Positions 3,358 through 62,532 of a DNA stretch of 64,000 nt are shown here, in pieces; positions within the stretch are counted from its first letter, which is position 1; every line of letters starts with the position of its first letter. The DNA comes from Patescibacteria group bacterium UBA2135 (GTDB lineage Bacteria > Patescibacteriota > Minisyncoccia > Phycocordibacterales > UBA2135): the NCBI GenBank assembly GCA_002327685.1, contig DCXN01000003.1, forward strand, positions 6,981 through 70,980. Direction: 5' to 3'. A program made the position numbers and the translations under genes. The notes under the pieces were generated by a model. The model was not told where the DNA came from. It did not search any database and was given only the letters and a program-made list of their open reading frames with translations.

Positions 3358-3426
3358 CCGCCGCAAGGCCCGGCCTTACATGGGGATAACCTGTGCATAA
3401 ACCACCCCGCAAGGCCGGGCCTTGCG
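3358..3426. repeat. REP-like element, family 1 (copy 3)
   Basis: CCGCCGCAAGGCCCGGCCTTACATGGGGATAACCTGTGCATAAACCACCCCGCAAGGCCGGGCCTTGCG. Confidence 0.8.
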
Positions 3427-3499
3427 TAAGCTCCTCGCATGCCACACACAAAAAGCCCCTACAAAAGGGACTTTCCGCTCAAACCACTCAAAAAAACAA

Positions 3500-3940
3500 T
3501 TACTTCAACTCAACCTTCCCCCCTGCCTCTTCAATCTTCTTTTTCATATCTTCCGCGTCTTCCTTCTTCACCCCTTCCTTAAGCATAGCCGGCACACCAT
3601 CAACAAGATCTTTCGCATCCTTAAGCCCAAGACCAAGTATCTCTTTTACAGCTTTGATAACCTGTATTTTTTGTTCTCCGCTAGAAGTAAGCTCAACATT
3701 AAATACAGATTTCTCCTCCGCCGCTCCACCAACATCTCCACCTGCAGGAGCAGCAGCAACAGCCGCAACAGCTTGCGCCGACACGCCAAATTTCTTTTCC
3801 AAAACCTTAACCAATTCAGAAAGATCAAGAACACTCATTTTCTCAATCTCCTCAACTAATTTCTTAAATTTTTCAGGAACCTCTACAACCTCGTCCTGCT
3901 GTGATTCCTCTTTAGATTCAGATTTCGTTTCTTCAACCAT
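3500..3940 (-). CDS. rplL: 50S ribosomal protein L7/L12
   Basis: Ala/Glu-rich hinge and the C-terminal domain [29 protein letters not shown]...GGKVELK. Confidence 0.9.
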
Positions 3941-3945
3941 GTTAC

Positions 3946-4027
3946 TAGGCTCTAGATTTTAGGCTCTAGGCTCTAGGAAAGAATCCGTGTTCCGTCCTAA
4001 AGCCTAATGCCTAATGCCTAATGCCTT
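3946..4027. repeat. Short tandem repeats in the rplJ-rplL spacer
   Basis: GGCTCTAG x3 followed by GCCTAATG x3. Confidence 0.5.
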
Positions 4028-4036
4028 TGTTAATTA

Positions 4037-4558
4037 TTAATTCTTCGCCTCCGCGACCTGGTGCAACACACTCACAAACGACTGCGTCATCCCATTTAAC
4101 ACCTGAACAGTCTGCTGAACAGGCGCGTTTATAACCATAACAAATTGCCCAAGAAGAACTTCTCGAGAAGGTATCTTCGCAAGAGCAACAACCTCTTCTT
4201 TCCTCAAATACCTTTTTTCAAGAATACCACCCACAGCCGATACCGCATTTTCAAATTTCTTCTGAAATTCCGCGATACCCTTTGCCGGCAAAACCATATC
4301 CTCACCATAAGCAAGCGCAATTTCTCCCTCAAGCTCCGGCAAATCCCCTTCCATCTCAGCATCTTGAAGTACTCGCTTAAGCAATGTTTTCTTCACTACA
4401 ACATACGAAACCCCCTCCTTACGAAGCGCGCTCCGCATTTCACTTGCGTCAGTTACAGACAACCCATGAAAATTAACAAACACAACAGAGTTCGCATTCT
4501 CCACTACATCAGCAGCCTGTTTGACGATTTCTTCTTTTTTCTGTTTTGTTAAAGCCAT
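4037..4558 (-). CDS. rplJ: 50S ribosomal protein L10
   Basis: MALTKQKKEEIVK...VVFVNFHGLSV...LKR signature of L10. Immediately upstream of rplL. Confidence 0.9.
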   Translation of the reverse strand: MALTKQKKEEIVKQAADVVENANSVVFVNFHGLSVTDASEMRSALRKEGVSYVVVKKTLLKRVLQDAEMEGDLPELEGEIALAYGEDMVLPAKGIAEFQKKFENAVSAVGGILEKRYLRKEEVVALAKIPSREVLLGQFVMVINAPVQQTVQVLNGMTQSFVSVLHQVAEAKN

Positions 4559-6328: not shown

Positions 6329-6397
6329 CGCCGCAAGGCCCGGCCTTACATGGGGATAAACTGTGGAAAACCTACCCCGCAAGGCCCGGCCTTGCGG
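6329..6397. repeat. REP-like element, family 1 (copy 4)
   Basis: CGCCGCAAGGCCCGGCCTTACATGGGGATAAACTGTGGAAAACCTACCCCGCAAGGCCCGGCCTTGCGG. Confidence 0.8.
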
Positions 6398-6720
6398 GTT
6401 TTTATATCCCACCCCTAAACACAAAATCACCTCATTTCCTAGAGCCTATTCACAATCTCGCCGCAAGTGAAAGAAATACTGCTCGCCGGCCAAAATCTCG
6501 AAATTCAGGCTGCAAATTATTCAAGACTCGTCGCCATATCTCGATATGCCTCCTCGTCTTTCATAATTTTCGCTCTGAATTTCGAAATTTATGGCTCGGC
6601 GCGAGATCGTAAACAGGCTCTAACGTCTCAAAATTAAAGCATCATTTTTTAAAAAACAATCCCGAAAATACATTATAAATTAAGGGTATTTTAGGAGCAT
6701 AAACAATCACCAAAAAACAC

Positions 6721-7272: not shown

Positions 7273-7341
7273 CGCCGCAAGGCCCGGCCTTACATGGGGA
7301 TAACTTGTTGATAAACTGCCCCGTAAGGCCGGGCCTTGCGG
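7273..7341. repeat. REP-like element, family 1 (copy 5)
   Basis: CCGCCGCAAGGCCCGGCCTTACATGGGGATAACTTGTTGATAAACTGCCCCGTAAGGCCGGGCCTTGCGG. Confidence 0.8.
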
Positions 7342-7378
7342 AAACAAAAACACGACCGAACCTTTTGGGTTCGATCGT
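7342..7378 (-). terminator. Rho-independent terminator for the 7401-7823 gene
   Basis: ACGACCGAACC-TTTT-GGGTTCGATCGT hairpin with a T-run on the minus strand. Confidence 0.55.
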
Positions 7379-7955: not shown

Positions 7956-8024
7956 CGCCGCAAGGCCCGGCCTTACATGGGGATAAGTTGTTGATAACCC
8001 ACCCCGCAAGGCCGGGCCTTGCGG
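7956..8024. repeat. REP-like element, family 1 (copy 6)
   Basis: CGCCGCAAGGCCCGGCCTTACATGGGGATAAGTTGTTGATAACCCACCCCGCAAGGCCGGGCCTTGCGG. Confidence 0.8.
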
Positions 8025-8079
8025 CATACCCAACCTTTCCCCCCCCACACAACACTGCTCTTACCTAACCACAGCCCAC

Positions 8080-10395: not shown

Positions 10396-10575
10396 CGAAC
10401 GGGAAAGGTCTGACCTTGAGGAAAAAACTGTGTCGCCAGGTCTGGCCTTGAGGAGGAGCGGAGCGACGGGAGAAGACCAGACCTTGCGGTACAGTTTTTG
10501 GGAAAAGGTCGGACCTCGCGGAGTCCATTTGCCGAACTGAGGAGTTTCAGCCCGAGACTGATCCGCCTCAGGCGG
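10396..10575. repeat. Family-2 GC-rich repeat array
   Basis: Units such as GGTCTGACCTTGAGG / CCAGGTCTGGCCTTGAGGAGGAGCGGAGCGACGGGAGAAG / ACCAGACCTTGCGG / GGTCGGACCTCGCGG. The core resembles the family-1 arm (CCGCAAGGYCCGGCCTT). Confidence 0.75.
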
Positions 10576-14129: not shown

Positions 14130-14199
14130 CCGCCGCAAGGCCCGGCCTTACATGGGGATAAGCTGTTGATAAACTACTCCATAAGGCCGGGCCTTGCGG
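14130..14199. repeat. REP-like element, family 1 (copy 7)
   Basis: CCGCCGCAAGGCCCGGCCTTACATGGGGATAAGCTGTTGATAAACTACTCCATAAGGCCGGGCCTTGCGG. Confidence 0.8.
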
Positions 14200-14285
14200 A
14201 CAAATGAATTTTTACCAAAACAAAAAAGACCGCCCCCTCGCATACGAAGCGAGGGTTTGGTCTCTCGTTTCGCCGAAGTGGCGGT

Positions 14286-16957: not shown

Positions 16958-17031
16958 CCCCCGCAAGGCCCGGCCTTGCAAGTTATCCACAGGTTATCCC
17001 CCAAAAACCTCTCTCAAGGCCGGGCCTTGCA
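16958..17031. repeat. REP-like element, family 1, inverted variant (copy 9)
   Basis: CCCCGCAAGGCCCGGCCTTGCAAGTTATCCACAGGTTATCCCC...CAAGGCCGGGCCTTGC. The central part is the reverse complement of GGGGATAACCTGTGGATAA. Confidence 0.7.
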
Positions 17032-17116
17032 GAAAATCATCCACTCAAAAACCGCCTCACTTATTAGCAAGGCGGTTTTTAATGATTTGCTTTATCTTCG
17101 TATTAGCTTCTTTTCT

Positions 17117-20869: not shown

Positions 20870-20909
20870 ATTATACCTAACAAATTGATTTACGCAACAC
20901 TCATACTCA

Positions 20910-20950
20910 CCCCGCAAGGCCCGGCCTTACATGGGGATAACCTGTGGATA
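20910..20950. repeat. REP-like element, family 1 (copy 10, left arm plus centre only)
   Basis: CCCCGCAAGGCCCGGCCTTACATGGGGATAACCTGTGGATAG. Confidence 0.65.
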
Positions 20951-26879: not shown

Positions 26880-27034
26880 CCCCCCTCACTCGAAAAATTA
26901 TTGACGACGTAGAGCGAGGTAAATGGACGGGAAAGGTCTGACCTTGAGGAGGAGCGAAGCGACGGGAGAAGGTCGGACCTTGCGGAGTCCATTTGCCGAG
27001 CCGAGGAGTTAGTAACTTTTCGAGTGAGGGGGTG
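26880..27034. mobile_element. Non-coding MITE-like element with the same inverted repeats as the GIY-YIG element, carrying a family-2 repeat core
   Basis: Inverted repeats CCCCCTCACTCGAAAA (26881-26896) and TTTTCGAGTGAGGGGG (27017-27032) enclose GACGGGAAAGGTCTGACCTTGAGGAGGAGCGAAGCGACGGGAGAAGGTCGGACCTTGCGGAGTCCATTTGCCGAGCCGAGGAG. Confidence 0.55.
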
Positions 27035-30942: not shown

Positions 30943-31070
30943 AGCCAGGTCTAGCCTTGAGGAAAAAACTGTACGGCCAGGTCTGACCTTGAGGAGGAGC
31001 GGAGCAACGGGAGAAGGTCGGACCTTGCGGTATAGTTTTCGGAAGAAGACCAGACCTTACGGACCTTGTC
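30943..31070. repeat. Family-2 GC-rich repeat array
   Basis: CCAGGTCTAGCCTTGAGGAAAAAACTGTACGGCCAGGTCTGACCTTGAGGAGGAGCGGAGCAACGGGAGAAGGTCGGACCTTGCGG...GACCAGACCTTACGGACCTTG. Confidence 0.75.
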
Positions 31071-34434: not shown

Positions 34435-34444
34435 ACCTTTAATA

Positions 34445-34534
34445 CCTACAACATACAACTAACAACCTACAACTTAAAACCGATTGTGTTGATTGCTAGT
34501 CACCAGTTGTTAGTTGTTAGTTGTATGTTGTTGG
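34445..34534. promoter_or_regulatory. Long hairpin (29-bp arms) between rpsR and the sigma factor gene
   Basis: CCTACAACATACAACTAACAACCTACAAC ... GTTGTTAGTTGTTAGTTGTATGTTGTTGG. Confidence 0.5.
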
Positions 34535-34723
34535 TTATTTTGAGACATACGGCAAAAAACCCATAAAACGAGCTCGTTTCACCGCTTCAGAAATTTTTCT
34601 CTGATTGCGAGCGCTCACTTTTGTATATTTCTTTGAGACAATGCGAGCATGCAAATTAATATACTTTTTCAGCGTCTCAGTGTCCTTATAGTCTATATAT
34701 TTTAAGTTTGTGGCGTTATTCAT
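34535..34723 (-). CDS. rpsR: 30S ribosomal protein S18
   Basis: ...YIDYKDTETLKKYI...ARNQRKISEAVKRARFMGFLPY. Start taken at the internal ATG, which has a GGAGCGAAGGAAC RBS. Confidence 0.8.
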   Translation of the reverse strand: MNNATNLKYIDYKDTETLKKYINLHARIVSKKYTKVSARNQRKISEAVKRARFMGFLPYVSK

Positions 34724-38458: not shown

Positions 38459-39241
38459 CTAAACACTAAACACCCTCTTCGCATTCGCCACCAACACCTC
38501 CCGAACTTTCTCAAAATCCTCCCCACGAATTTCAGCGATTTTCTTTACCACTTCTTTAACATAAATCGGCTCATTTCGCCGACCACGATACGGAACCGGA
38601 GCAGCAAAAGGACAATCAGTTTCAGATAAGATTGACTCAAGCGGTAAACCACGCACCACATCATCATAGTCTGAAGTGAAAGTAATCACCCCGGGAAAAG
38701 AAATAGTAAAACCTAGTTCCACATATGCATTCGCCTCCGCAAGCGAACCGGTAAAAAAATGAATGTTGCCGAATAATTTTTCTCCATATATTTTTTTCTT
38801 CTCTTGAAGTATTGCTGTTGTTTCTGTATGCGCATCCCGACAGTGAATCATCAGTGATTTTCCTAACTCCACACCAAGTTCAACGTGTTGCATAAACACC
38901 TCTTTTTGTTTTTCAAGTTCTTTCTCACTCCACTCTTTAGTACGAAATAAATCAATTCCGCATTCACCAATCGCAACAACGCCCTCCTTCTGCGCAAGAG
39001 TTTTATAAAAACTTGTAGAAAATTCCTCTTTTAGAGCATCATTTGGATGAAGCCCCACAGCCGCGAATATTCCATCCTTCACAGAAATCATATCGCACGC
39101 CTTCTGCGATGATTCTTTATCAGTCCCAACAACAACAGTAGAGACACTTTCTTCTTTCATTCGTCCCAAAACCTCCGCCAAATCTTCGTCAAAACCGAAA
39201 AATTGAAGATGCGAATGTGTATCAAAATATTTTGGTATCAT
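38459..39241 (-). CDS. tatD: TatD-family metal-dependent hydrolase (DNase)
   Basis: MIPKYFDTHSHLQF...GLHPN...GECGID.... Confidence 0.85.
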   Translation of the reverse strand: MIPKYFDTHSHLQFFGFDEDLAEVLGRMKEESVSTVVVGTDKESSQKACDMISVKDGIFAAVGLHPNDALKEEFSTSFYKTLAQKEGVVAIGECGIDLFRTKEWSEKELEKQKEVFMQHVELGVELGKSLMIHCRDAHTETTAILQEKKKIYGEKLFGNIHFFTGSLAEANAYVELGFTISFPGVITFTSDYDDVVRGLPLESILSETDCPFAAPVPYRGRRNEPIYVKEVVKKIAEIRGEDFEKVREVLVANAKRVFSV

Positions 39242-39261
39242 ATTTAATTTTTTTTCTTTTT

Positions 39262-39300
39262 ATCTATGGGCTAATTCGTGCGAATAAGCCCATAGATACT
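39262..39300. other. Hairpin with core TTATTCGTGCGAATAA (copy 1)
   Basis: TATCTATGGGC-TAATTCGTGCGAATAA-GCCCATAGATA. The same loop core sits in a perfect 18-bp-stem hairpin at 62493-62532. Confidence 0.5.
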
Positions 39301-39800
39301 AGGATCACTCTTGCTCTGCATCGCTGATAAAAAAGCTCCGCTGAAGCGGAGCAAGCCTTGTTTAACGCAAAGAGTTAAACTCATCGGTGGAAAGTCGCGC
39401 CGCTTCAACGGGGGAAATCCTCTCAACAGGGACTTCTCACTCCTCAGCGGTTGCCCAAAGGGGCTCGCGAACAATCCACCGACGCCGAAAAATGGTTCAT
39501 TCAAATTCGATAACAACAGATATTATAATCGCCCTAATTAATTGAATGCTCCTTTGGCTACATCGCTGGAGCAGGACGGGAAACTGCATCAGTGCTCACC
39601 TGCAAATATCCATTGTCATTGTAACATAAAGCAATCAAATTTGTCAGGCAAAACTAACTAACTACTTACCATCCCAAACAAGCCTTGCAATATAAGGGTA
39701 TTTAGGAAGCAGACAAAATTTTCTTTTGTACTTTTTTGAAGTCACCCCTTCCACAAAAAAGGCCCCAAAGAATGCACACGCACTCTTTGGGGCTTAATTT
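39300..39800. ncRNA. Candidate structured non-coding RNA of unknown class
   Basis: About 500 nt with no protein-like ORF and locally elevated GC (~50%). Multiple short GC stems (GCTCCGC-TGAA-GCGGAGC; GTTTAAC-GCAAAGA-GTTAAAC). The only ORF (39271-39516, minus) has an implausible composition. Confidence 0.3.
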
Positions 39801-39811
39801 ACATCCACTTG

Positions 39812-40114
39812 TCATATTCTATCCCCAGGCTTTTCTCTCTGAATATCTCTCCAGCCTTTCCCCTCCTCTATAGGGCAACTCATGCCTTTGGGAGTGGTAA
39901 GCATAATGGTGAAACTTCCTCCAGACGAGATGAAAACCTCTACCAAATTGCCTTTATTGCTAAGTCCGACAGACTTCAGCGCTTCCGAATGTTCCTTTTT
40001 TAGAAATGCGATGACTCTTTTACGTTCGTAGCAATCAATACTAAAACCAGTGTTTGCCGGCGCCGCACAACCATATATTAAAAACAAGAACAACACAACG
40101 AATAAACACCTCAT
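39812..40114 (-). CDS. Small lipoprotein
   Basis: Signal peptide with lipobox LFLIYGC. Start at the internal ATG, which has an RBS. Confidence 0.5.
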   Translation of the reverse strand: MRCLFVVLFLFLIYGCAAPANTGFSIDCYERKRVIAFLKKEHSEALKSVGLSNKGNLVEVFISSGGSFTIMLTTPKGMSCPIEEGKGWRDIQREKPGDRI

Positions 40115-40171
40115 TTCCCTTCTCCTAGCCAAAATTTACGAACTACAACTAACTACTTTCAGTATGTCAAA

Positions 40172-44223: not shown

Positions 44224-45594
44224 TCATCGTAATTTTGTTGTCAATTCTTTAACAGAAACTCGCTCCTGTTTTCCAGTATCCCTATCACGCACCGTCACAC
44301 TGTCATTTTCAAGAGTTTCAAAATCAATCGTAACGCAATTCGGCGTACCAATCTCATCCTGCCGACGATAGCGTTTACCAATATTCCCATTATCGTCCCA
44401 CATTATTTCAGGAATTTCTTTTTTCAACGCACCAAAAACTTCTTCTGCTTTTTTTACTAATTCCGGCTTATTGCGCATAAGAGGAAAGACAGCCGCTTTA
44501 ATAGGGGCAATGCTTGGCTTCAAACGCAACACAACTCTTTTCTCGCCGTTCATTTCGTCTTCATCGTAACTCTCCGCAAGCACCGCAAGTATTGTGCGAT
44601 CCAACCCCGCAGATGTTTCAACAACATAAGGAATATAACGCTCTTTCGTTTCTTCGTCCATCACCCTGAAATCAACTCCTGAAAACTTTTGATGTTGAGT
44701 AAGATCATAATCACCACGATTATGAACACCCTCAAGTTCATCCCAACCAAACGGATATTTATACTGTATATCCCAGGCGTCTCTTGCATAAAATACCAAA
44801 TGTTCATGTTGCTTCCATCGTAAGTTTTCCTTTTTTATACCAAGATCAATATAATATTGCATACGCTCTTTCTTCCAGTCTTCGTATGCTTTTTCCGCAT
44901 CGCGTGGATGTACAAAATACTGCATTTCCATCTGCTCAAATTCGCGTTTTCTAAAAAGAAATTGTCGCGGACTGATTTCGTTTCTAAATACTTTACCGAC
45001 TTGAGCAATACCAAAAGGAACATTATAAAAACCGGTATTCAGTACATTTTTAAAATTAATAAAAATACCCTGCGCAGTCTCCCCGCGAAGATACGCTTCT
45101 TCGTCTTCTTCCTCAAATTTTCCAAGTGTGGAGGTCGCTAAAAGATTTTTCTGCACAACCTTTCCAAAATTTTTCTTTCCACATACCGGGCATTTGAGTT
45201 TCTCTCGGTTAGTATCAAATAATTCATTCAACTCTGTTTCAGACATTTTTTCATCTGCCTGCACATCTACACTTTCCAAAAGATGATCCGCTCGCAACTT
45301 ACTATGGCAAGAAAAACACACAACCAGCGGATCATTGAAGCCTGACACATGTCCGCTTGCTTCCCACACTTTGGGTGAAGTAAAAATACTTGAATCAAGA
45401 AAAGCCATTTTCCCATGCATCCGCATCGTGCGCATCCACGCATTTACTATATTCTGCCGAAGCGCTACTCCGTGATGCCCATAGTCATACATTCCGGCAA
45501 ATCCGCCATAAATCTCTGACCCTTGAAATACAAAACCCCGCCTTTTAGTAAGACTTACTATTTTGTCTAATTTGGATAAATTGTTGTTTTCCAT
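44224..45594 (-). CDS. glyQS: Glycyl-tRNA synthetase (single-chain class II)
   Basis: Class II motifs and a C-terminal anticodon-binding domain. Start at the internal Met (MENNNLSKLDK...). Confidence 0.85.
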   Translation of the reverse strand: MENNNLSKLDKIVSLTKRRGFVFQGSEIYGGFAGMYDYGHHGVALRQNIVNAWMRTMRMHGKMAFLDSSIFTSPKVWEASGHVSGFNDPLVVCFSCHSKLRADHLLESVDVQADEKMSETELNELFDTNREKLKCPVCGKKNFGKVVQKNLLATSTLGKFEEEDEEAYLRGETAQGIFINFKNVLNTGFYNVPFGIAQVGKVFRNEISPRQFLFRKREFEQMEMQYFVHPRDAEKAYEDWKKERMQYYIDLGIKKENLRWKQHEHLVFYARDAWDIQYKYPFGWDELEGVHNRGDYDLTQHQKFSGVDFRVMDEETKERYIPYVVETSAGLDRTILAVLAESYDEDEMNGEKRVVLRLKPSIAPIKAAVFPLMRNKPELVKKAEEVFGALKKEIPEIMWDDNGNIGKRYRRQDEIGTPNCVTIDFETLENDSVTVRDRDTGKQERVSVKELTTKLR

Positions 45595-45744
45595 ACGCAG
45601 TTTTAATGCACACATCGGCGAGGCTCGCCTCTTAGGCGGCCCGCCTTTTGGCAAGTGAAACTATTTTTGATAATTTATCCATAAATTGCTTACAACTTTC
45701 AACTGTTTCTATGGCGAAAATTAAATCATCACGGTTTCGTTGTT

Positions 45745-45882
45745 CGTCATAGGTCGTAGGTCGTTCGTTGTAGGTCGTTCGTTGTAGGTTGTTTGTCGTA
45801 GGTCGTTCGTTGTAGGTCGTTCGTTGTAGGTTGTTTGTTGTAGGTTGTTTGTTGTAGGTTGTTTGTTGTAGGTTGTTTGTTA
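45745..45882. repeat. Tandem repeat, 14-bp period x ~10
   Basis: (C/T)GTTGTAGGT(C/T)GTT repeated. Lies between the 45880-47808 gene stop and the glyQS start. Confidence 0.8.
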
Positions 45883-47808
45883 CTCGTCTTTAGGCAACAC
45901 TACCTTCCCCTGACTAAAAATAAAGTTCGGGTCAGTGCTAAGCGAAGTATCAAGCGCCTTACTTGAAAGACGCGCGACTGTCTCTGTAAACTCATCAACT
46001 CCTGAAAACGTTGACTCACCAATTACCGTCGGAGTCTGGTTGAGATGCGACAAGCTTGGCATAAGTTTTACCTGAAATGCAACCTCTCGCGGCGGCAATG
46101 TCATACCCGACCCCGCCTCAAGCCGATCAATGTTCCATACCACTTCGCGAGACGATTCATTGTATGAAATATTTTCACTCATTGGCGTAAAAACTCCCAC
46201 CCATTTAACATAAGGAGGTAAAACTGCTTTGACCATTGAGCGAGAGACATGATTTGACGAATTAACAGCCGTAAAAACAACTGTGTATGTTGTTTCGCGC
46301 TCAACTTCCGGCGGTACAGGACCTGTGTTTATAAACGGTCCAACAAAATATACCATACGAGACGTAAATACAACATCAGAGGCAATTTTAATCGTACGCT
46401 CAATTGAATTTTCAACTCGCTCATCAACGCCTGACTCCGAAAGTCGCTTACCACTTGTAGTTACAACAATATCAACAGTTGGATTTTTAAATAGTGAACC
46501 GCTTGTGGTAAAAAGCGGCTGCAACGCAAACCGAAAACTTGTTCTTCCCTGCGCGCCAGACTCAATGTCCGCAAGATCCGGCAGTGAATTCTTATCCCAC
46601 AAAATCGTGTTATCAGCTGAATCAAAGAATCCATTACGCGGCTTCACTGAAAGTTCATTAATAACATCACCTGAAAGCTTTGCTTCAATGCGCGCGTCAA
46701 CAATTTTGGTCGGCAAGTTATTTGTCCATACGACCTCAACGTCAACAAGCGAGCCGCTTCCCACAGCTGGTTCTTTTCTTGTTTCTCCATTGACAAACAA
46801 AAGCGTACTCAAGAAAGGGCGCGCAATTGAAATAGTAGATATTGATGTATTGTATGTAACCCCGAGTTCATTTTCTTTCTCTTTGGATTTAGCGCCGCTT
46901 GAAACCCGGAATACTTTCTCTTCCCCATCTTGCCCTTCAAGAATTCCGCGAACAACAATCACGCGCCGTGCCCGCGGCGCCAAATCACCAATAAGCCATT
47001 TGTTATCGCCAGATACGGCCTGCGGCTCAGCCCCAAGAAATGAAAAACCAAACGGATAGTCTATCTCGACAGCAAGATCACGAGTTATTATGTCGGTATT
47101 TGATATGACTGTAGCTTTAATTTCAAATTCCTGCCCTGCCACCGCTTCAGAAAGTGTCTCTACGGTAAGGCTGGTAGCAGAAGAGCTGATATGTATTTCA
47201 TGTTCTTTTTCTTTTACAAAAATGGCATTAGAATCTTCTACTCTATACTCAAGTGTAATATTAAATTTCTTTTCATCTCCTTCTTGTCCAAACAATACAA
47301 GCCGCAAAGGTTCTTCAATAACCTCCCCTGCTTCAATACGATCAAGCGATTTACGAAAGTTGGAAAGTTCTGTTTTAAGTTTGCCAACACTTCTTGTTCC
47401 TTGCGGATATTCAACCAAAAAATCAACAAATTCAAGAGGGACACTATTGTTATTTTCAATTACAATTTGGAGTTGCACTTCTTCACCCGCGGGCGCCGCA
47501 ACAGGGCCTGAAACAAGAATGTCCACATTTTTTGTGGAGATAACATTAGAATCACGCAGCAAAACAAATGAAGCAACAATCATCGCAAGAACAAAAAAGA
47601 GTATTGAGATAATGAAAAATTTTTTCCAGAATGGCATGATTGGTTTTTTTGCGTCCGCAGGATCCGCTTCTTCGGCTTCCCACCCGCTTTCACCCTCCCC
47701 GTCATGTGTATGAAGCTCAAAGCGTTCACTTGGAGGCAAATTCGCGCCACGCCTATACAAAGACTTTTTAAGCCGCTCTATCTTCCCCTCTTTTTTCACC
47801 TTAGACAT
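45880..47808 (-). CDS. Membrane-anchored large hypothetical protein with repeated beta-rich domains
   Basis: 642 aa. N-terminal transmembrane segment after a charged cytoplasmic head. Extracellular Ig-like repeats. Confidence 0.6.
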   Translation of the reverse strand: MSKVKKEGKIERLKKSLYRRGANLPPSERFELHTHDGEGESGWEAEEADPADAKKPIMPFWKKFFIISILFFVLAMIVASFVLLRDSNVISTKNVDILVSGPVAAPAGEEVQLQIVIENNNSVPLEFVDFLVEYPQGTRSVGKLKTELSNFRKSLDRIEAGEVIEEPLRLVLFGQEGDEKKFNITLEYRVEDSNAIFVKEKEHEIHISSSATSLTVETLSEAVAGQEFEIKATVISNTDIITRDLAVEIDYPFGFSFLGAEPQAVSGDNKWLIGDLAPRARRVIVVRGILEGQDGEEKVFRVSSGAKSKEKENELGVTYNTSISTISIARPFLSTLLFVNGETRKEPAVGSGSLVDVEVVWTNNLPTKIVDARIEAKLSGDVINELSVKPRNGFFDSADNTILWDKNSLPDLADIESGAQGRTSFRFALQPLFTTSGSLFKNPTVDIVVTTSGKRLSESGVDERVENSIERTIKIASDVVFTSRMVYFVGPFINTGPVPPEVERETTYTVVFTAVNSSNHVSRSMVKAVLPPYVKWVGVFTPMSENISYNESSREVVWNIDRLEAGSGMTLPPREVAFQVKLMPSLSHLNQTPTVIGESTFSGVDEFTETVARLSSKALDTSLSTDPNFIFSQGKVVLPKDE

Positions 47809-47862: not shown

Positions 47863-48053
47863 CCGCCAGGTCTGGCCTTGAGGAGGAGCGGAGCCGAGTC
47901 TGACTCGGCGCAGCGACGGGAAAAGGCCGGACCTTGCGGAACGGTTTTTTCTAATTTGCAGACCTTGAGAAAAAAACTGTGCAGCCAGGTCTGGCCTTGA
48001 GGAGGAGCGAAGCGACGGGAAAAGGCCGGACCTTGCGGAACAGTTTTCCGCAG
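47863..48053. repeat. Family-2 GC-rich repeat array (two large units)
   Basis: CCAGGTCTGGCCTTGAGGAGGAGCG(G/A)AGC...GACGGGAAAAGGCCGGACCTTGCGGAAC(G/A)GTTTT x2, one unit with an inserted CCGAGTCTGACTCGG hairpin. Confidence 0.8.
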
Positions 48054-48150
48054 TTTCCCCCCATTCCATCAGAACCTTGCAAGGTTTTGATAGAATGTTA
48101 ACAATTTAGGCAAAATTCCCCTCAATTTTATATGAATACAGCAATTTTTA

Positions 48151-48190: not shown

Positions 48191-48844
48191 TTAGTTCTCT
48201 AAATCAACAACAGTAATATCAGAAAAAACCTCTTGCAATACACGTAATCGTTCTGATGATTCTGTTTGTGACTTCTTTGAAAATTCTTTAATACTGTTTT
48301 CAATGTCATTTGTCATCTCTCCTGTTTTTTTAAATTTTTCTAATTCTCCATTTGGTAACATTGGCCAAAAATCTTTTGGTAAGCCACTCGTACCCTTTCT
48401 AACTCCTCCAATAAATCTCTTGTAGATACGGGATGTATATTTTTCTATTGGTGTGGGGTGAATGTATATAAATTCAAAATCAGACAACGTATCTGAAAAA
48501 ATACTTTTTAATGTATGTGGGTTTGCCATTGAACCTTCCACTACAACATTACCTCGCAATATAGCTTTTCGTAACTCTTGTTGAGCACCGGTAATAAAAG
48601 CTTCTCTCCATTCTGATGGTTCACCAAAACGATATGCCACAACATAAGCTTTAGGAACATCATCTACACCAAATTTTTCAACAACATTTTTTTGTACAAT
48701 TTGATCAAATGAAATCGATACATACCCAAGATCCTCTACTAGTTGATGAGCGAATGTTGTTTTTCCTGTTGAGGTTTTACCACTGATATATACAATCTGT
48801 GGTTTTGTGTTTTTAATCTTCTTATATACTCCCTCAAGATTCAT
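48191..48844 (-). CDS. P-loop NTPase / nucleoside(-tide) kinase-like protein
   Basis: Walker A IVYISGKTSTGKTTFAHQL. 217 aa. Confidence 0.55.
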   Translation of the reverse strand: MNLEGVYKKIKNTKPQIVYISGKTSTGKTTFAHQLVEDLGYVSISFDQIVQKNVVEKFGVDDVPKAYVVAYRFGEPSEWREAFITGAQQELRKAILRGNVVVEGSMANPHTLKSIFSDTLSDFEFIYIHPTPIEKYTSRIYKRFIGGVRKGTSGLPKDFWPMLPNGELEKFKKTGEMTNDIENSIKEFSKKSQTESSERLRVLQEVFSDITVVDLEN

Positions 48845-51361: not shown

Positions 51362-51371
51362 AGTTAGCAAA

Positions 51372-52090
51372 GCATTTTAATCAATTTAATCAAAAAGAAC
51401 GCACGCGGTGCGTCCTTGCTCCTTGTTGACAGAACTATACTACAAATCCACTACCTACGCAATCATCTTTTTGAAACGCCGTCAGGTCTGGCCTTCCCGC
51501 CTGCCATCGCCCGACTGACCTTTGCGGACGATTAGGCAGTGGCGGGCAGGGAGGAGGAGCGGAGCGACGGGCCTCGGTCTCGGATAATTCTATACCAAGC
51601 ACTACAAGGCTTTTCTGACGGCTTTTAGTTTACTGTTTCAATGCTCCTCGGAACAAAGTGTAAATTGCTTATCCTCGTAAAACAAGCTATCCTTAGATTG
51701 GATGCTTGAGCAGTGCCGAGGCTAATACGGCGAGATCAGCACGCTAGCCCGAATACCTCGACAGTACTTTGACCGGCCTTAGCTTCAAAGTTGAGGAACG
51801 TCGTCCGTAACTATAACGGACCTTCGCTTGAGCATCCACTTTCTTCTAGCCATTTCTTTGGAAGTGGTTTTTCTATTATAAGAAGCTCTTCATACTCTGA
51901 TCATACTCTGAACCTACCCCGAACTACCTGACTGCTTAGAACGATGTTGAAACCTGTTTTATTTTATCAAATTAATCACTCGACAAAGATTCAAATGGCA
52001 GATAATGCTCGAATATTTTAATGAACATCGAGCTGTCCACAGAAACAAGAAAGCCGCCTACTTCAAACATAAAGTGACGGCTTATATTAA
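51372..52090. other. About 720-nt ORF-free region (candidate leader or ncRNA) containing a disrupted family-2 repeat
   Basis: No ORF of 60 aa or more in any frame. Mixed GC. Several stems (AACGCAC-GCG-GTGCGT; CCGCCTGCC...GGCAGTGGCGGG). The family-2 core (51481-51584) carries a 50-nt insertion. Confidence 0.35.
51481..51584. repeat. Family-2 repeat, disrupted copy
   Basis: GTCAGGTCTGGCCTTCC-[50-nt insert]-AGGGAGGAGGAGCGGAGCGACGGGCCTCGGTCTCGG. Confidence 0.6.
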
Positions 52091-58991: not shown

Positions 58992-59588
58992 ATGCAAAAA
59001 TATAAAGAACAGACATTTAATACCCCTGACTTAGAAGGACTGTCGACGAAACAGATTGAAATACATCTTAAGTTATACGCCGGATACGTAAATCATGTAA
59101 ATTTAATTAGAGAAAAAATCCACGAACTTGAAGCGGAAAGTAGCGAAAAACATGTATACGCTATTGCCGAGCTTCGCAGGAGATTCAGTTTTGAGTTTAA
59201 TGGAATGCGAATGCACGAATATTATTTTGAACAGTGGGAGAACGGGCCCAAAGTACCTGACGAATCGTCAGCGCTTGGACAAGCGATTTCAGAAAAATAT
59301 GGGAGTTGGGAAAAATTTATTGAACATTTTAGAGCAGTTGGTGCGACACGCGGAGTCGGTTGGACAGTCCTCTACTATGACTCTATTGGCATGACTCCAC
59401 ACACGACATGGGTTGGCGAACACGAACTCGGAGTACTCGCGGGACTCCCTGTTATATTAGCAATGGATATGTGGGAGCACGCATTTATGGTTGATTACAC
59501 TCCAATGGAAAAAAATAAATACATAGACGTATTTTTCACAAACCTCAATTGGAGCATCCCTGAAGAACGATTCAATAAAACACAATAA
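58992..59588 (+). CDS. Fe/Mn superoxide dismutase
   Basis: N-terminal HLKLYAGYVNHVN and C-terminal DMWEHAF metal-ligand motifs. Confidence 0.85.
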   Translation: MQKYKEQTFNTPDLEGLSTKQIEIHLKLYAGYVNHVNLIREKIHELEAESSEKHVYAIAELRRRFSFEFNGMRMHEYYFEQWENGPKVPDESSALGQAISEKYGSWEKFIEHFRAVGATRGVGWTVLYYDSIGMTPHTTWVGEHELGVLAGLPVILAMDMWEHAFMVDYTPMEKNKYIDVFFTNLNWSIPEERFNKTQ

Positions 59589-61758: not shown

Positions 61759-62412
61759 TCAACTCGCTGGGACAATAAACGCAAACACGTTGCCAACATC
61801 CCGCCGGTCGCAAGGCTCAAACCAAGTCGCACTGAGCCAAAGACCATCATCGTGTGGACTCAAGCAGAACACGCTCGGACTGCCCTGGCGATCCTTGATG
61901 GGATTATGGGGAACAATAATATGCCGAAATCCCATTTCCTTCATCTGTCGATCCGAGACGGATTCCAGGATGCGCGGCGCAATACCCGCAAGCGGATTTC
62001 CATAGCCGTACTTTTCTGTTCCCCTCTTGCGCAGGTTGTCGTTCGTGCAGTCGGTATCGCACATGATTTCATCGGTGGGCATGAGCACGATTTGGTACTC
62101 CTGTCCCTCGACGAGCCGATGGTTCTTGTCGTAGCCGTCATGCCTCTTGCTCAAGAGGCACGATCGGGGCCAATCGTCCGTGCAGAATCCGGCGGCAGTA
62201 AGCCGCCTAAGCTCCTCCTTGCCCGTAAGGTCAAGCCCTGTGACCTTAAAGACAAAGTGACCGTGCTCGTTGCGCATGAACGAGAACGGGTTCTTGCGCT
62301 GTGTAAACAGCGCAAGTTCGTCGAGCGTAAGACCTCCATGCTGAACCTTGTGGCACAGGTCAGCAAGAAGACCAGCCAAGCGTTCGCCCGGCAAGGTTCC
62401 GATGTCACCCAT
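61759..62412 (-). CDS. Hypothetical protein encoded in a GC-rich (~57% GC) island
   Basis: Start at the internal ATG with an AGGAGAA RBS. Overlapping ORFs in all frames reflect the high GC. Confidence 0.5.
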   Translation of the reverse strand: MGDIGTLPGERLAGLLADLCHKVQHGGLTLDELALFTQRKNPFSFMRNEHGHFVFKVTGLDLTGKEELRRLTAAGFCTDDWPRSCLLSKRHDGYDKNHRLVEGQEYQIVLMPTDEIMCDTDCTNDNLRKRGTEKYGYGNPLAGIAPRILESVSDRQMKEMGFRHIIVPHNPIKDRQGSPSVFCLSPHDDGLWLSATWFEPCDRRDVGNVFAFIVPAS

Positions 62413-62492
62413 CAGAGTTCTCCTGTTTTGCCAGTGGGCTCTCCGACTACCGGAGTTTGCCATAGCAGAAAACCCTGAGCACAATTGCAAGT

Positions 62493-62532
62493 TCGTTGTT
62501 GTAGGCTTATTCGTGCGAATAAGCCTACAACA
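62493..62532. other. Hairpin with core TTATTCGTGCGAATAA (copy 2), perfect 18-bp stem
   Basis: GTTGTTGTAGGC-TTATTCGTGCGAATAA-GCCTACAACAAC. Confidence 0.55.

Follow-up and report, generated by a model that had tools for sequence, protein, structure and literature searches.

A predicted structured non-coding RNA gene between metG and tatD in Patescibacteria that matches no Rfam family

Introduction

The closest described counterparts of the element reported here, a predicted non-coding RNA (ncRNA) of 283 nt, are the stand-alone small RNAs (sRNAs) of bacteria, trans-encoded or protein-binding, with which it shares a sigma-70-type promoter, a Rho-independent terminator, an intergenic position, the lack of a conserved open reading frame (ORF), a narrow range and an invariant 5' end. 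The element lies on the minus strand at positions 39329-39611 of a 64,000-nt stretch of DNA from Patescibacteria group bacterium UBA2135 (contig DCXN01000003.1, positions 6,981 to 70,980; hereafter the window), in the gap between tatD and a small ORF that comes after metG. Compared with most base-pairing sRNAs it is larger and more elaborately folded (243-283 nt in the three sequences found, about eight helices, a GC-rich junction), and it matches no Rfam family.

Terminating riboswitches and leaders constitute a second group for comparison. They resemble the present RNA in combining a structured domain with a terminator upstream of a co-oriented gene and in having mutually exclusive conserved 5' pairings, while in the case studied here the linkage to the gene is broken in one of the related loci (L107), the linker is long and unconserved, and neither an anti-terminator nor a match to a known aptamer class was found. 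Furthermore, orphan structured RNA candidates have reportedly been found in the intergenic region (IGR) surveys of the Breaker laboratory as GC-rich IGRs in AT-rich genomes. Motifs of this type usually have tens to thousands of representatives. The RNA described here has the same GC-rich, ORF-free IGR signature and likewise draws support from covariation; it differs in having three representatives, and no published motif in Rfam 15 matches it.

In Patescibacteria, also referred to as the candidate phyla radiation (CPR), genomes are tiny and recognised regulators few. To our knowledge, almost nothing is known about their ncRNAs beyond rRNA, tRNA, RNase P RNA and transfer-messenger RNA (tmRNA). 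A covariation-backed RNA gene outside Rfam that is delimited by promoter and terminator thus offers a concrete entry point to the ncRNAs of this group.

RNase P RNA (RF00010/RF00011) deserves separate mention. In 10 of 35 circular CPR genomes sub-threshold Rfam scores were needed for its detection, with thresholds down to 5 bits for some genomes, and several helices were missing, while these sub-threshold RNAs still kept the conserved core (PMC8172020). Like RNase P RNAs including the CPR forms (PMC8172020), the RNA studied here is structured, GC-rich, a few hundred nt long and located in an AT-rich, reduced genome, and an octamer resembling the CR-I block, GGAAAGUC, is present. On the other hand, this octamer is antisense and unconserved, a P4 partner and an ACAGAA block are missing, the RNA is shorter and it is absent at the locus in the closest relative.

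Results

A Promoter-to-Terminator Unit on the Minus Strand

An earlier note, made from the letters of the window, had described positions 39300-39800 as an ORF-free, GC-elevated segment of about 500 nt upstream of tatD and as a candidate structured RNA. Conservation and base-pair covariation in relatives bear out the structured RNA; it is, however, assigned to the other strand and covers about 283 nt (39329-39611). Taking the sequence evidence together, we consider it likely that 39329-39611 on the minus strand is a genuine ncRNA gene.

The predicted transcription unit starts with a sigma-70-type promoter at 39618-39647 (minus strand), composed of the -35 element CTGACA (39647-39642), an 18-nt spacer and the extended -10 element TGtTACAAT (39626-39618), with 10/12 matches. 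The -10 block ATGwTACAAT is invariant in the window and in the two related loci that carry the RNA, L107 and L243, and the promoter in L243 is perfect (TTGACA-17-TGATACAAT). The RNA would begin with GGAU at the seventh base after the -10 element, and the spacing of 6 nt between TACAAT and GGAU is kept in all three sequences. Its 3' end is set by the end of the U-tract of an intrinsic terminator, GCUCCGC-UUCA-GCGGAGC followed by U6 (39329-39352, stem 39352-39335, minus strand). In L107 and L243 the terminator stem is the same except for a change from G-C to G-U, one from U-A to U-G, and the fourth base of the loop.

Assignment of the strand does not rest on folding energy: the gap region is more stable than its shuffles with z = -4.09 on either strand (0 of 200 shuffles were as stable), so that folding alone cannot assign the strand. 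A scan, by which the promoter and terminator of the RNA were located, found promoters and U-tracts on the minus strand only, and several helices hold G-U pairs that become C-A on the plus strand. These two lines of evidence indicate that the minus strand is transcribed.

The gap that harbors the RNA extends from 39242 to 39811 (570 nt) and is bordered by tatD (38459-39241, minus strand; Pfam TatD_DNase, E = 8e-71), which confirms the position upstream of tatD given earlier, and by a domain-free ORF of 106 aa after metG (39812-40132, minus strand). The description as ORF-free also holds. Only mechanical ORFs occur (81 aa, TTG start, minus strand; 76 aa, TTG start, plus strand; others of 30-52 aa), stops are frequent in all six frames, and no genes are called in the gap on identical public contigs. 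Elevated GC content, on the other hand, is a property of the 108-nt core at 39380-39487 (0.611, within the top 0.7% among all 108-nt windows) and not of 39300-39800 as a whole (0.441 vs. 0.417 for the complete window); the GC content of the RNA outside the core is 0.40. Both GC stems pointed out earlier are present, GCTCCGC-TGAA-GCGGAGC at 39335-39352 and GTTTAAC...GTTAAAC at 39360-39380, but the first, taken for a stem with a tetraloop, is the minus-strand terminator with its T6.

Conservation in Two Related Loci

The window derives from an uncultured marine bacterium that resembles Paceibacteria. Identical copies are present in Tara Oceans assemblies, and the nearest relatives by TatD and MetG are all annotated as metagenome-assembled genomes of Parcubacteria, Paceibacterota or similar groups. 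A synteny search anchored on TatD covered 102 loci on genome and metagenome contigs; blastn, nhmmer and motif searches detected the RNA in none of them. Later protein-anchored look-ups led to the loci L107 (Logan SRR18502801; TatD 79% and MetG 74% identical to the window) and L243 (Logan SRR24269688; MetG 69% identical). The RNA of L107 comprises 243 nt (2097-2339) and lies between an 84-aa ORF and a higA-like gene that precedes tatD, while that of L243 comprises 252 nt (1937-2188) and lies between an 81-aa ORF and tatD. The order metG - small ORF - RNA - tatD is therefore common to all three loci. Five population variants (L001-L003, L097 and L116) are 100% identical over the RNA and uninformative.

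Similarity of the intergenic DNA of the three loci is limited to the unit from promoter to terminator, the remainder being unalignable by blastn and nhmmer. Conservation begins exactly at the GGAU start with a near-invariant block of 26 nt, GGAUrUUyGCAGGUGAGCrCUGAUGy, and ends at the terminator. Since the unit is conserved at only 72-79% identity of the flanking proteins, selection is likely to act on it. The earlier note had proposed to look for conservation and covariation in relatives and to abandon the candidate if both an Rfam match and such conservation were lacking; conservation as well as covariation were found in L107 and L243, and only the lack of an Rfam match holds true.

Covariance models (CMs) were built from the core of the window as a single sequence (R1) and from all three sequences (R2) and run on about 100 related loci (450-556 kb). 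R1 picked up only L107 (24 bits) and L243 (31 bits), and neither model revealed members beyond these two and the copies of the window in the loci searched. In viral contigs, an 18-mer of the 5' block matches only chance sites in GC-rich phage ORFs and the core pattern yields more than 120 chance matches; blastn of the RNA against phage and plasmid collections gave no match. As far as found, the putative RNA is thus restricted to three Patescibacteria lineages, and with so narrow a distribution its present value is moderate.

Secondary Structure and Covariation

The predicted architecture comprises, from the 5' end, a hairpin (nt 1-33) in competition with a long-range helix, a variable hairpin, a small hairpin, a GC-rich core of several helices, an A/U-rich linker and the terminator. 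The fold z-score amounts to -4.09 in the window and to -3.56 in L107.

The 5' hairpin (39579-39611, minus strand; 12 bp, GAGC loop; RNAalifold) contains the near-invariant block. All 36 of 36 cells are paired in the gap-free first 33 columns, compared to 36-64% in controls with slid partners. Two pairs are compensatory, with A5-U29 and U8-A27 in the window corresponding to G5-C29 and C8-G27 in L107 and L243; no other position of the 5' tail varies, and both of these covary with their partners. In each of the three sequences the hairpin is the minimum free energy (MFE) structure of nt 1-33. A mutually exclusive long-range helix, H1, pairs RNA nt 12-24 (39600-39588) with nt 91-103 (3' strand AUCUGUUGUUAUC, 39509-39521, minus strand). 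It has 12 bp and is the MFE structure in L107 and L243; in the window it contains one U-U mismatch and one bulge, and its changes are one-sided only. Alternation between the 5' hairpin and H1 might conceivably serve as a functional switch.

The distal part of the 5' domain (39522-39578) is variable. The window carries a lineage-specific insertion of about 40 nt there with the hairpin UGCUCC...GGAGCA, while its counterpart in L107 and L243 is the short hairpin CCCCG-UGUUA-CGGGG. The small hairpin H2 (39485-39510, UCGAA...UUCGG) reads CCGGA...xCCGG in the relatives; its fourth pair is A-U in the window vs. G-C in L107 and L243, and its first is U-G vs. C-G.

The GC-rich core domain (39382-39484, minus strand) is closed by the 10-bp stem S1 (39484-39475 with 39391-39382). 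Inside S1 follow the stacked helices CGCG/CGCG and CCGC/GCGG and the hairpin GCCCCUUUGGGC (39464-39453), which only the window has; the invariant segment GUGAGAAG occupies 39440-39433, and the hairpin S5 pairs 39436-39430 with 39420-39414. On the CM alignment 93% of the cells are paired and nine pairs are changed on both sides, a result reached by none of 500 column shuffles; when the 3' partners were moved by 1-3 columns, pairing fell to 31-53%. An independent run of RNAalifold on this alignment again gave the closing stem, helix 2 and S5, with compensatory changes at eight pairs. As the CM alignment is fitted to the model, the helices were also read directly from the sequences. In S1, pair 6 changes from G-C to A-U and pair 10 from A-U to G-C, and S5 contains one change from U-A to C-G and one from C-G to U-A, the latter between L107 and L243. 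In total, at least seven base pairs are changed on both sides and still paired in the direct reading. Between core and terminator stretches a poorly conserved linker of 30-50 nt, which in the window forms the specific hairpin GUUUAAC-UCUUUGC-GUUAAAC (39360-39380) and is longer and A/U-rich in the relatives.

Known RNA Families

With Rfam 15 at gathering thresholds no match was obtained in the whole window or in nine related loci. At E <= 10, a mode that would not list scores below about 10-13 bits, the gap of the window and L107 gave only spurious matches to terminator hairpins; L243 was run at the gathering threshold only. ARAGORN detected neither tRNA nor tmRNA in the window.

Several specific candidates were considered and rejected. 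A T-box leader does not fit, as the GGUGG/GAUGG segment is fully paired in S1 with compensatory changes, metG is located upstream and not downstream, and no Rfam match was obtained. Elements reminiscent of hammerhead ribozymes (CUGAUG), 5S rRNA (GAAGUGA), C/D boxes, signal recognition particle (SRP) RNA and CsrB (GGA) were looked for by eye in the three sequences; in each case the motif is paired, unconserved or incomplete. The GTTTAAC/GTTAAAC hairpin is not an integron attC site, having a length of only 21 nt, no L boxes and no conservation in relatives. In addition, tblastn with three ArsR-like or other helix-turn-helix (HTH) proteins found no trace of a corresponding pseudogene in the gap.

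A Variable Slot between metG and tatD

In the closest relative, represented by the loci L051 and L112 from the same organism, MetG is 89% identical to that of the window and the DNA is 85-90% identical (about 87%) across metG, small ORF and tatD. Synteny is lost precisely between 39748 and 39298, where a gene for a 93-aa ArsR-like HTH protein takes the place of the RNA, with one copy of a 32-nt palindrome on either side. This constitutes an exact replacement polymorphism: 39299-39747 of the window with the RNA correspond to 6884-7351 of L112 (1966-2433 of L051) with the ArsR-like gene and an extra palindrome, and the replaced segment is bounded by the same upstream terminator and the same tatD-proximal palindrome in both. 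It follows that the RNA is not fixed at the metG-tatD slot. The exchange of the RNA for an ArsR-like gene in a genome that is about 87% identical provides a natural comparison for the role of the RNA. The cargo of the slot varies in nearly every relative and includes genes of the ArsR-like, HTH_24 and higA-like types as well as small ORFs.

The two boundary elements lie outside the RNA. The terminator of the upstream 106-aa ORF (39762-39793, minus strand; 14-bp stem with T-run) falls within the interval described earlier and is kept in L051 and L112. The palindrome CTATGGGCTTATTCGCACGAATTAGCCCATAG (39262-39295, without strand; 32 nt, perfect core) is situated between the RNA and the start of tatD; a second copy occurs at 62504-62525 just upstream of the ORF 61759-62490. 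As two copies flank the ArsR-like gene in L051/L112 (L051 2041-2068 and 2438-2468), the palindrome is probably the operator of that regulator. An ArsR homologue is not visible in the 64-kb window.

The higA-like gene of L107 (2444-2725), a member of the XRE family of HTH genes between RNA and tatD, has its own consensus TTGACA/TATAAT promoter and a terminator. No higB-like toxin gene adjoins it.

Discussion

Judged by its sequence features, the predicted RNA is an unclassified family, new to Rfam 15 and of an ordinary kind, a bacterial stand-alone structured sRNA. It has its own promoter and intrinsic terminator, conservation is limited to the span between them, and the structure is kept in three sequences by compensatory substitutions. 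The more comprehensive statement, namely that a gene of its own encodes this structured small ncRNA of about 283 nt and that the RNA acts in trans, is the one that we favor, with moderate confidence. The RNA would act as a folded molecule and may bind a protein or nucleic acid via the parts that do not vary, namely GGAUrUUyGCAGGUGAGC in the 5' block and GUGAGAAG in the core.

A number of points weigh against this interpretation. The covariation derives from three distinct sequences, of which L107 and L243 are close, and therefore amounts to essentially two evolutionary contrasts; part of it was, furthermore, counted on the model-fitted alignment. RNAduplex did not detect a common target of the 5' block across the three lineages in the available flanks, which amount to a few kb for each. 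In two lineages, those of the window and of L243, the RNA is located directly upstream of tatD in the same orientation, just as expected of a cis-acting leader. In addition, its absence from the slot in L112/L051, L108, L113, L114, L115, L242 and L244, some of which have about 70% MetG identity, applies only to the syntenic slot with a few kb of flank. Finally, Rfam thresholds can miss diverged housekeeping RNAs of the CPR (PMC8172020). Because of its absence from the slot in the first six of these relatives, the RNA would be accessory rather than housekeeping.

The main rival explanation is a cis-acting leader or attenuator of tatD, akin to a riboswitch, in which the core would be the sensor, the terminator would be conditional and the competing 5' folds would form the switch, with an ArsR-type repressor doing the job in sister genomes. 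Its appeal derives from the co-oriented position immediately upstream of tatD, with 85 nt from the U-tract to the ATG in the window and about 25 nt in L243, from the two conserved pairings that compete for nt 12-24, and from the fact that relatives without the RNA have an ArsR or other HTH gene and palindromic operators in the slot. We nevertheless rate this explanation as unlikely. In L107 the higA-like gene, equipped with a consensus promoter and a terminator of its own, stands between the RNA and tatD, and in L243 as well as L107 tatD has an apparent -10 box of its own downstream of the RNA terminator, a TATAAT in the case of L243. On account of this intervening gene, the TATAAT box in L243 and the lack of a conserved anti-terminator, the RNA would not be a tatD leader. 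Moreover, the linker of 30-50 nt from core to terminator is poorly conserved, inspection found no conserved anti-terminator pairing, no alternative pairing that involves the terminator was found, the terminator itself is strong and nearly invariant, and none of the riboswitch families in Rfam matches.

Quite unlikely, in our estimation, is a more far-reaching proposal that a new class of complex-folded RNA (250-285 nt, about eight helices) from a marine lineage of Paceibacteria is at hand, whose conserved 5' conformational alternative and GC-rich junction domain would give it a function beyond antisense regulation, such that it would sense a ligand or protein or would serve as a ribonucleoprotein scaffold, replacing the ArsR-type regulator of sister genomes.

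A further explanation denies the RNA any cellular function and treats it as a remnant or passenger in a recombination-prone slot, where promoter and terminator hairpins would have been kept by descent. The cargo of the slot does differ in nearly every relative, the RNA is exactly replaced (39299-39747) in L112, and GC-rich palindromic repeats abound in the intergenic DNA of the genome. Neutral intergenic DNA should, however, be unalignable at 72-79% identity of the flanking proteins, yet blocks of 18-26 nt are near-identical and substitutions preserve pairing. Nor does the RNA belong to any dispersed repeat family found in the window, and there is the lack of phage and plasmid matches reported above. 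Lack of function thus appears improbable.

That a highly diverged housekeeping RNA, i.e., RNase P RNA, 6S RNA, tmRNA or SRP RNA, has been missed by the Rfam models strikes us as very improbable. Some CPR RNase P RNAs do fall below Rfam thresholds (PMC8172020), and RNase P, 6S, tmRNA and SRP RNAs were all undetected anywhere in the 64-kb window. The hint at the P4 helix of RNase P RNA in the earlier note, drawn from GGAAAGUC, did not survive: the octamer exists (GGAAAGTC at 39389-39396, plus strand only) but on the non-transcribed strand, where it is the complement of the junction ACUU together with the start of the 3' strand of S1, and it is absent from L107 and L243, which carry AACUCAUCG on the RNA strand in its place. 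On the transcribed strand, the three RNAs share neither a block like CR-I (GAGGAAAGUCC, the 5' strand of P4) nor one like CR-V (ACAGAA...GGCUUA), its partner in P4; a possible pairing AAGUCC/GGCUU in the window lacks a counterpart in L107 and L243. RF00010 and RF00011, like the 6S, tmRNA and SRP RNA families, gave no match at gathering threshold or at E <= 10 for window and L107, and at gathering threshold for L243. As regards tmRNA, the 3' end is a terminator and not tRNA-like, and the GGGG that precedes the RNA in L107 is unconserved; 6S RNA (RF00013) is a rod of about 180-200 nt, while the RNAs of 243-283 nt have predicted multi-domain folds with a multi-helix junction. In the closest relative the slot is devoid of the RNA.

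Hardly credible, finally, is a dual-function RNA or an mRNA that encodes a very short peptide, in either of which AGGUGA-N6-AUG of the 5' block would provide ribosome-binding site and start: AGGUGA, the 6-nt spacing and AUG are conserved in 3/3 sequences, and the ORFs of 30 aa in the window (39589-39497) and 18 aa in L107 share an FPVL motif and stop just before the core, but L243 reads AUG-UGA (0 aa), which refutes a small ORF from the conserved AUG, peptides of 30, 18 and 0 aa have little similarity, indels are not multiples of three and hence disrupt the frame, the 5' hairpin accounts for these bases and remains paired after every substitution, and most genes of the genome lack a Shine-Dalgarno site.

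Additional Observations in the Window and in Related Loci

A dispersed intergenic repeat family with at least ten copies (236-323, 2002-2089, 3361-3448, 6331-6418, 7275-7362, 7958-8045, 14133-14220, 16961-17041 and 20904-20950, among others) is characterized by the GC-rich palindromes CCGCAAGGCCCGGCCTTAC / CCCCGCAAGGCCGGGCCTTGCG that flank GGGGATAAcCTGTgGATAA, which holds a DnaA-box-like sequence TTATCCACA on the other strand. A second GC-rich repeat family, AGGTCTGACCTTGAGGAGGAGCGAAGCGACGGGAGAAGGTCGGACCTTGCGG, occurs at 10406-10546, 26934-27010, 30947-31063 and 47868-48071, and a copy is also present in L112 (3536-3616).

Another long gene-free gap (51371-52090, minus strand; 720 nt) combines a GC-rich part at 51447-51615 with a long-range pairing, GGAUGCUCAAGC...GCUCAAGCAUCC; a hairpin that resembles a terminator lies at 51417-51395. 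Rfam gave no match to this gap even at E <= 10, and it is a candidate for another RNA or a decayed gene. In L244, whose MetG is 66% identical to that of the window, 840 nt without a called gene (3442-4283) follow metG and contain a TTGACA promoter-like site, a hairpin GGUUGCAAC...GUUGCAACC with T-run and GC-rich stretches. This segment, negative with R1 and R2, is no homologue of the RNA described above and has no Rfam match.

In L116 (ERZ5402580 contig, low coverage of 1.36), compared with 38770-39458, the sequence is 99.6% identical to the window down to 38770 and then diverges inside tatD into a PIG-L-family gene; either the assembly is chimeric or this is a structural variant.

Most ORF starts in the window are not preceded by a Shine-Dalgarno site. 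Boxes resembling a -10 element (TGTTACAAT or TATAAT) are found 6-9 nt before several ATGs, e.g., of the ORFs at 58992 (plus strand), where TGTTACAAT lies just upstream, 45880-47808 (minus strand) and 48191-48844 (minus strand), which suggests that leaderless mRNAs may be frequent in this genome. A tandem array at 45722-45903, built from about 13 copies of the 14-nt unit TTCGTTGTAGGTCG, lies between the ORFs 44224-45654 and 45880-47808, and a complementary array is located at 34444-34535.

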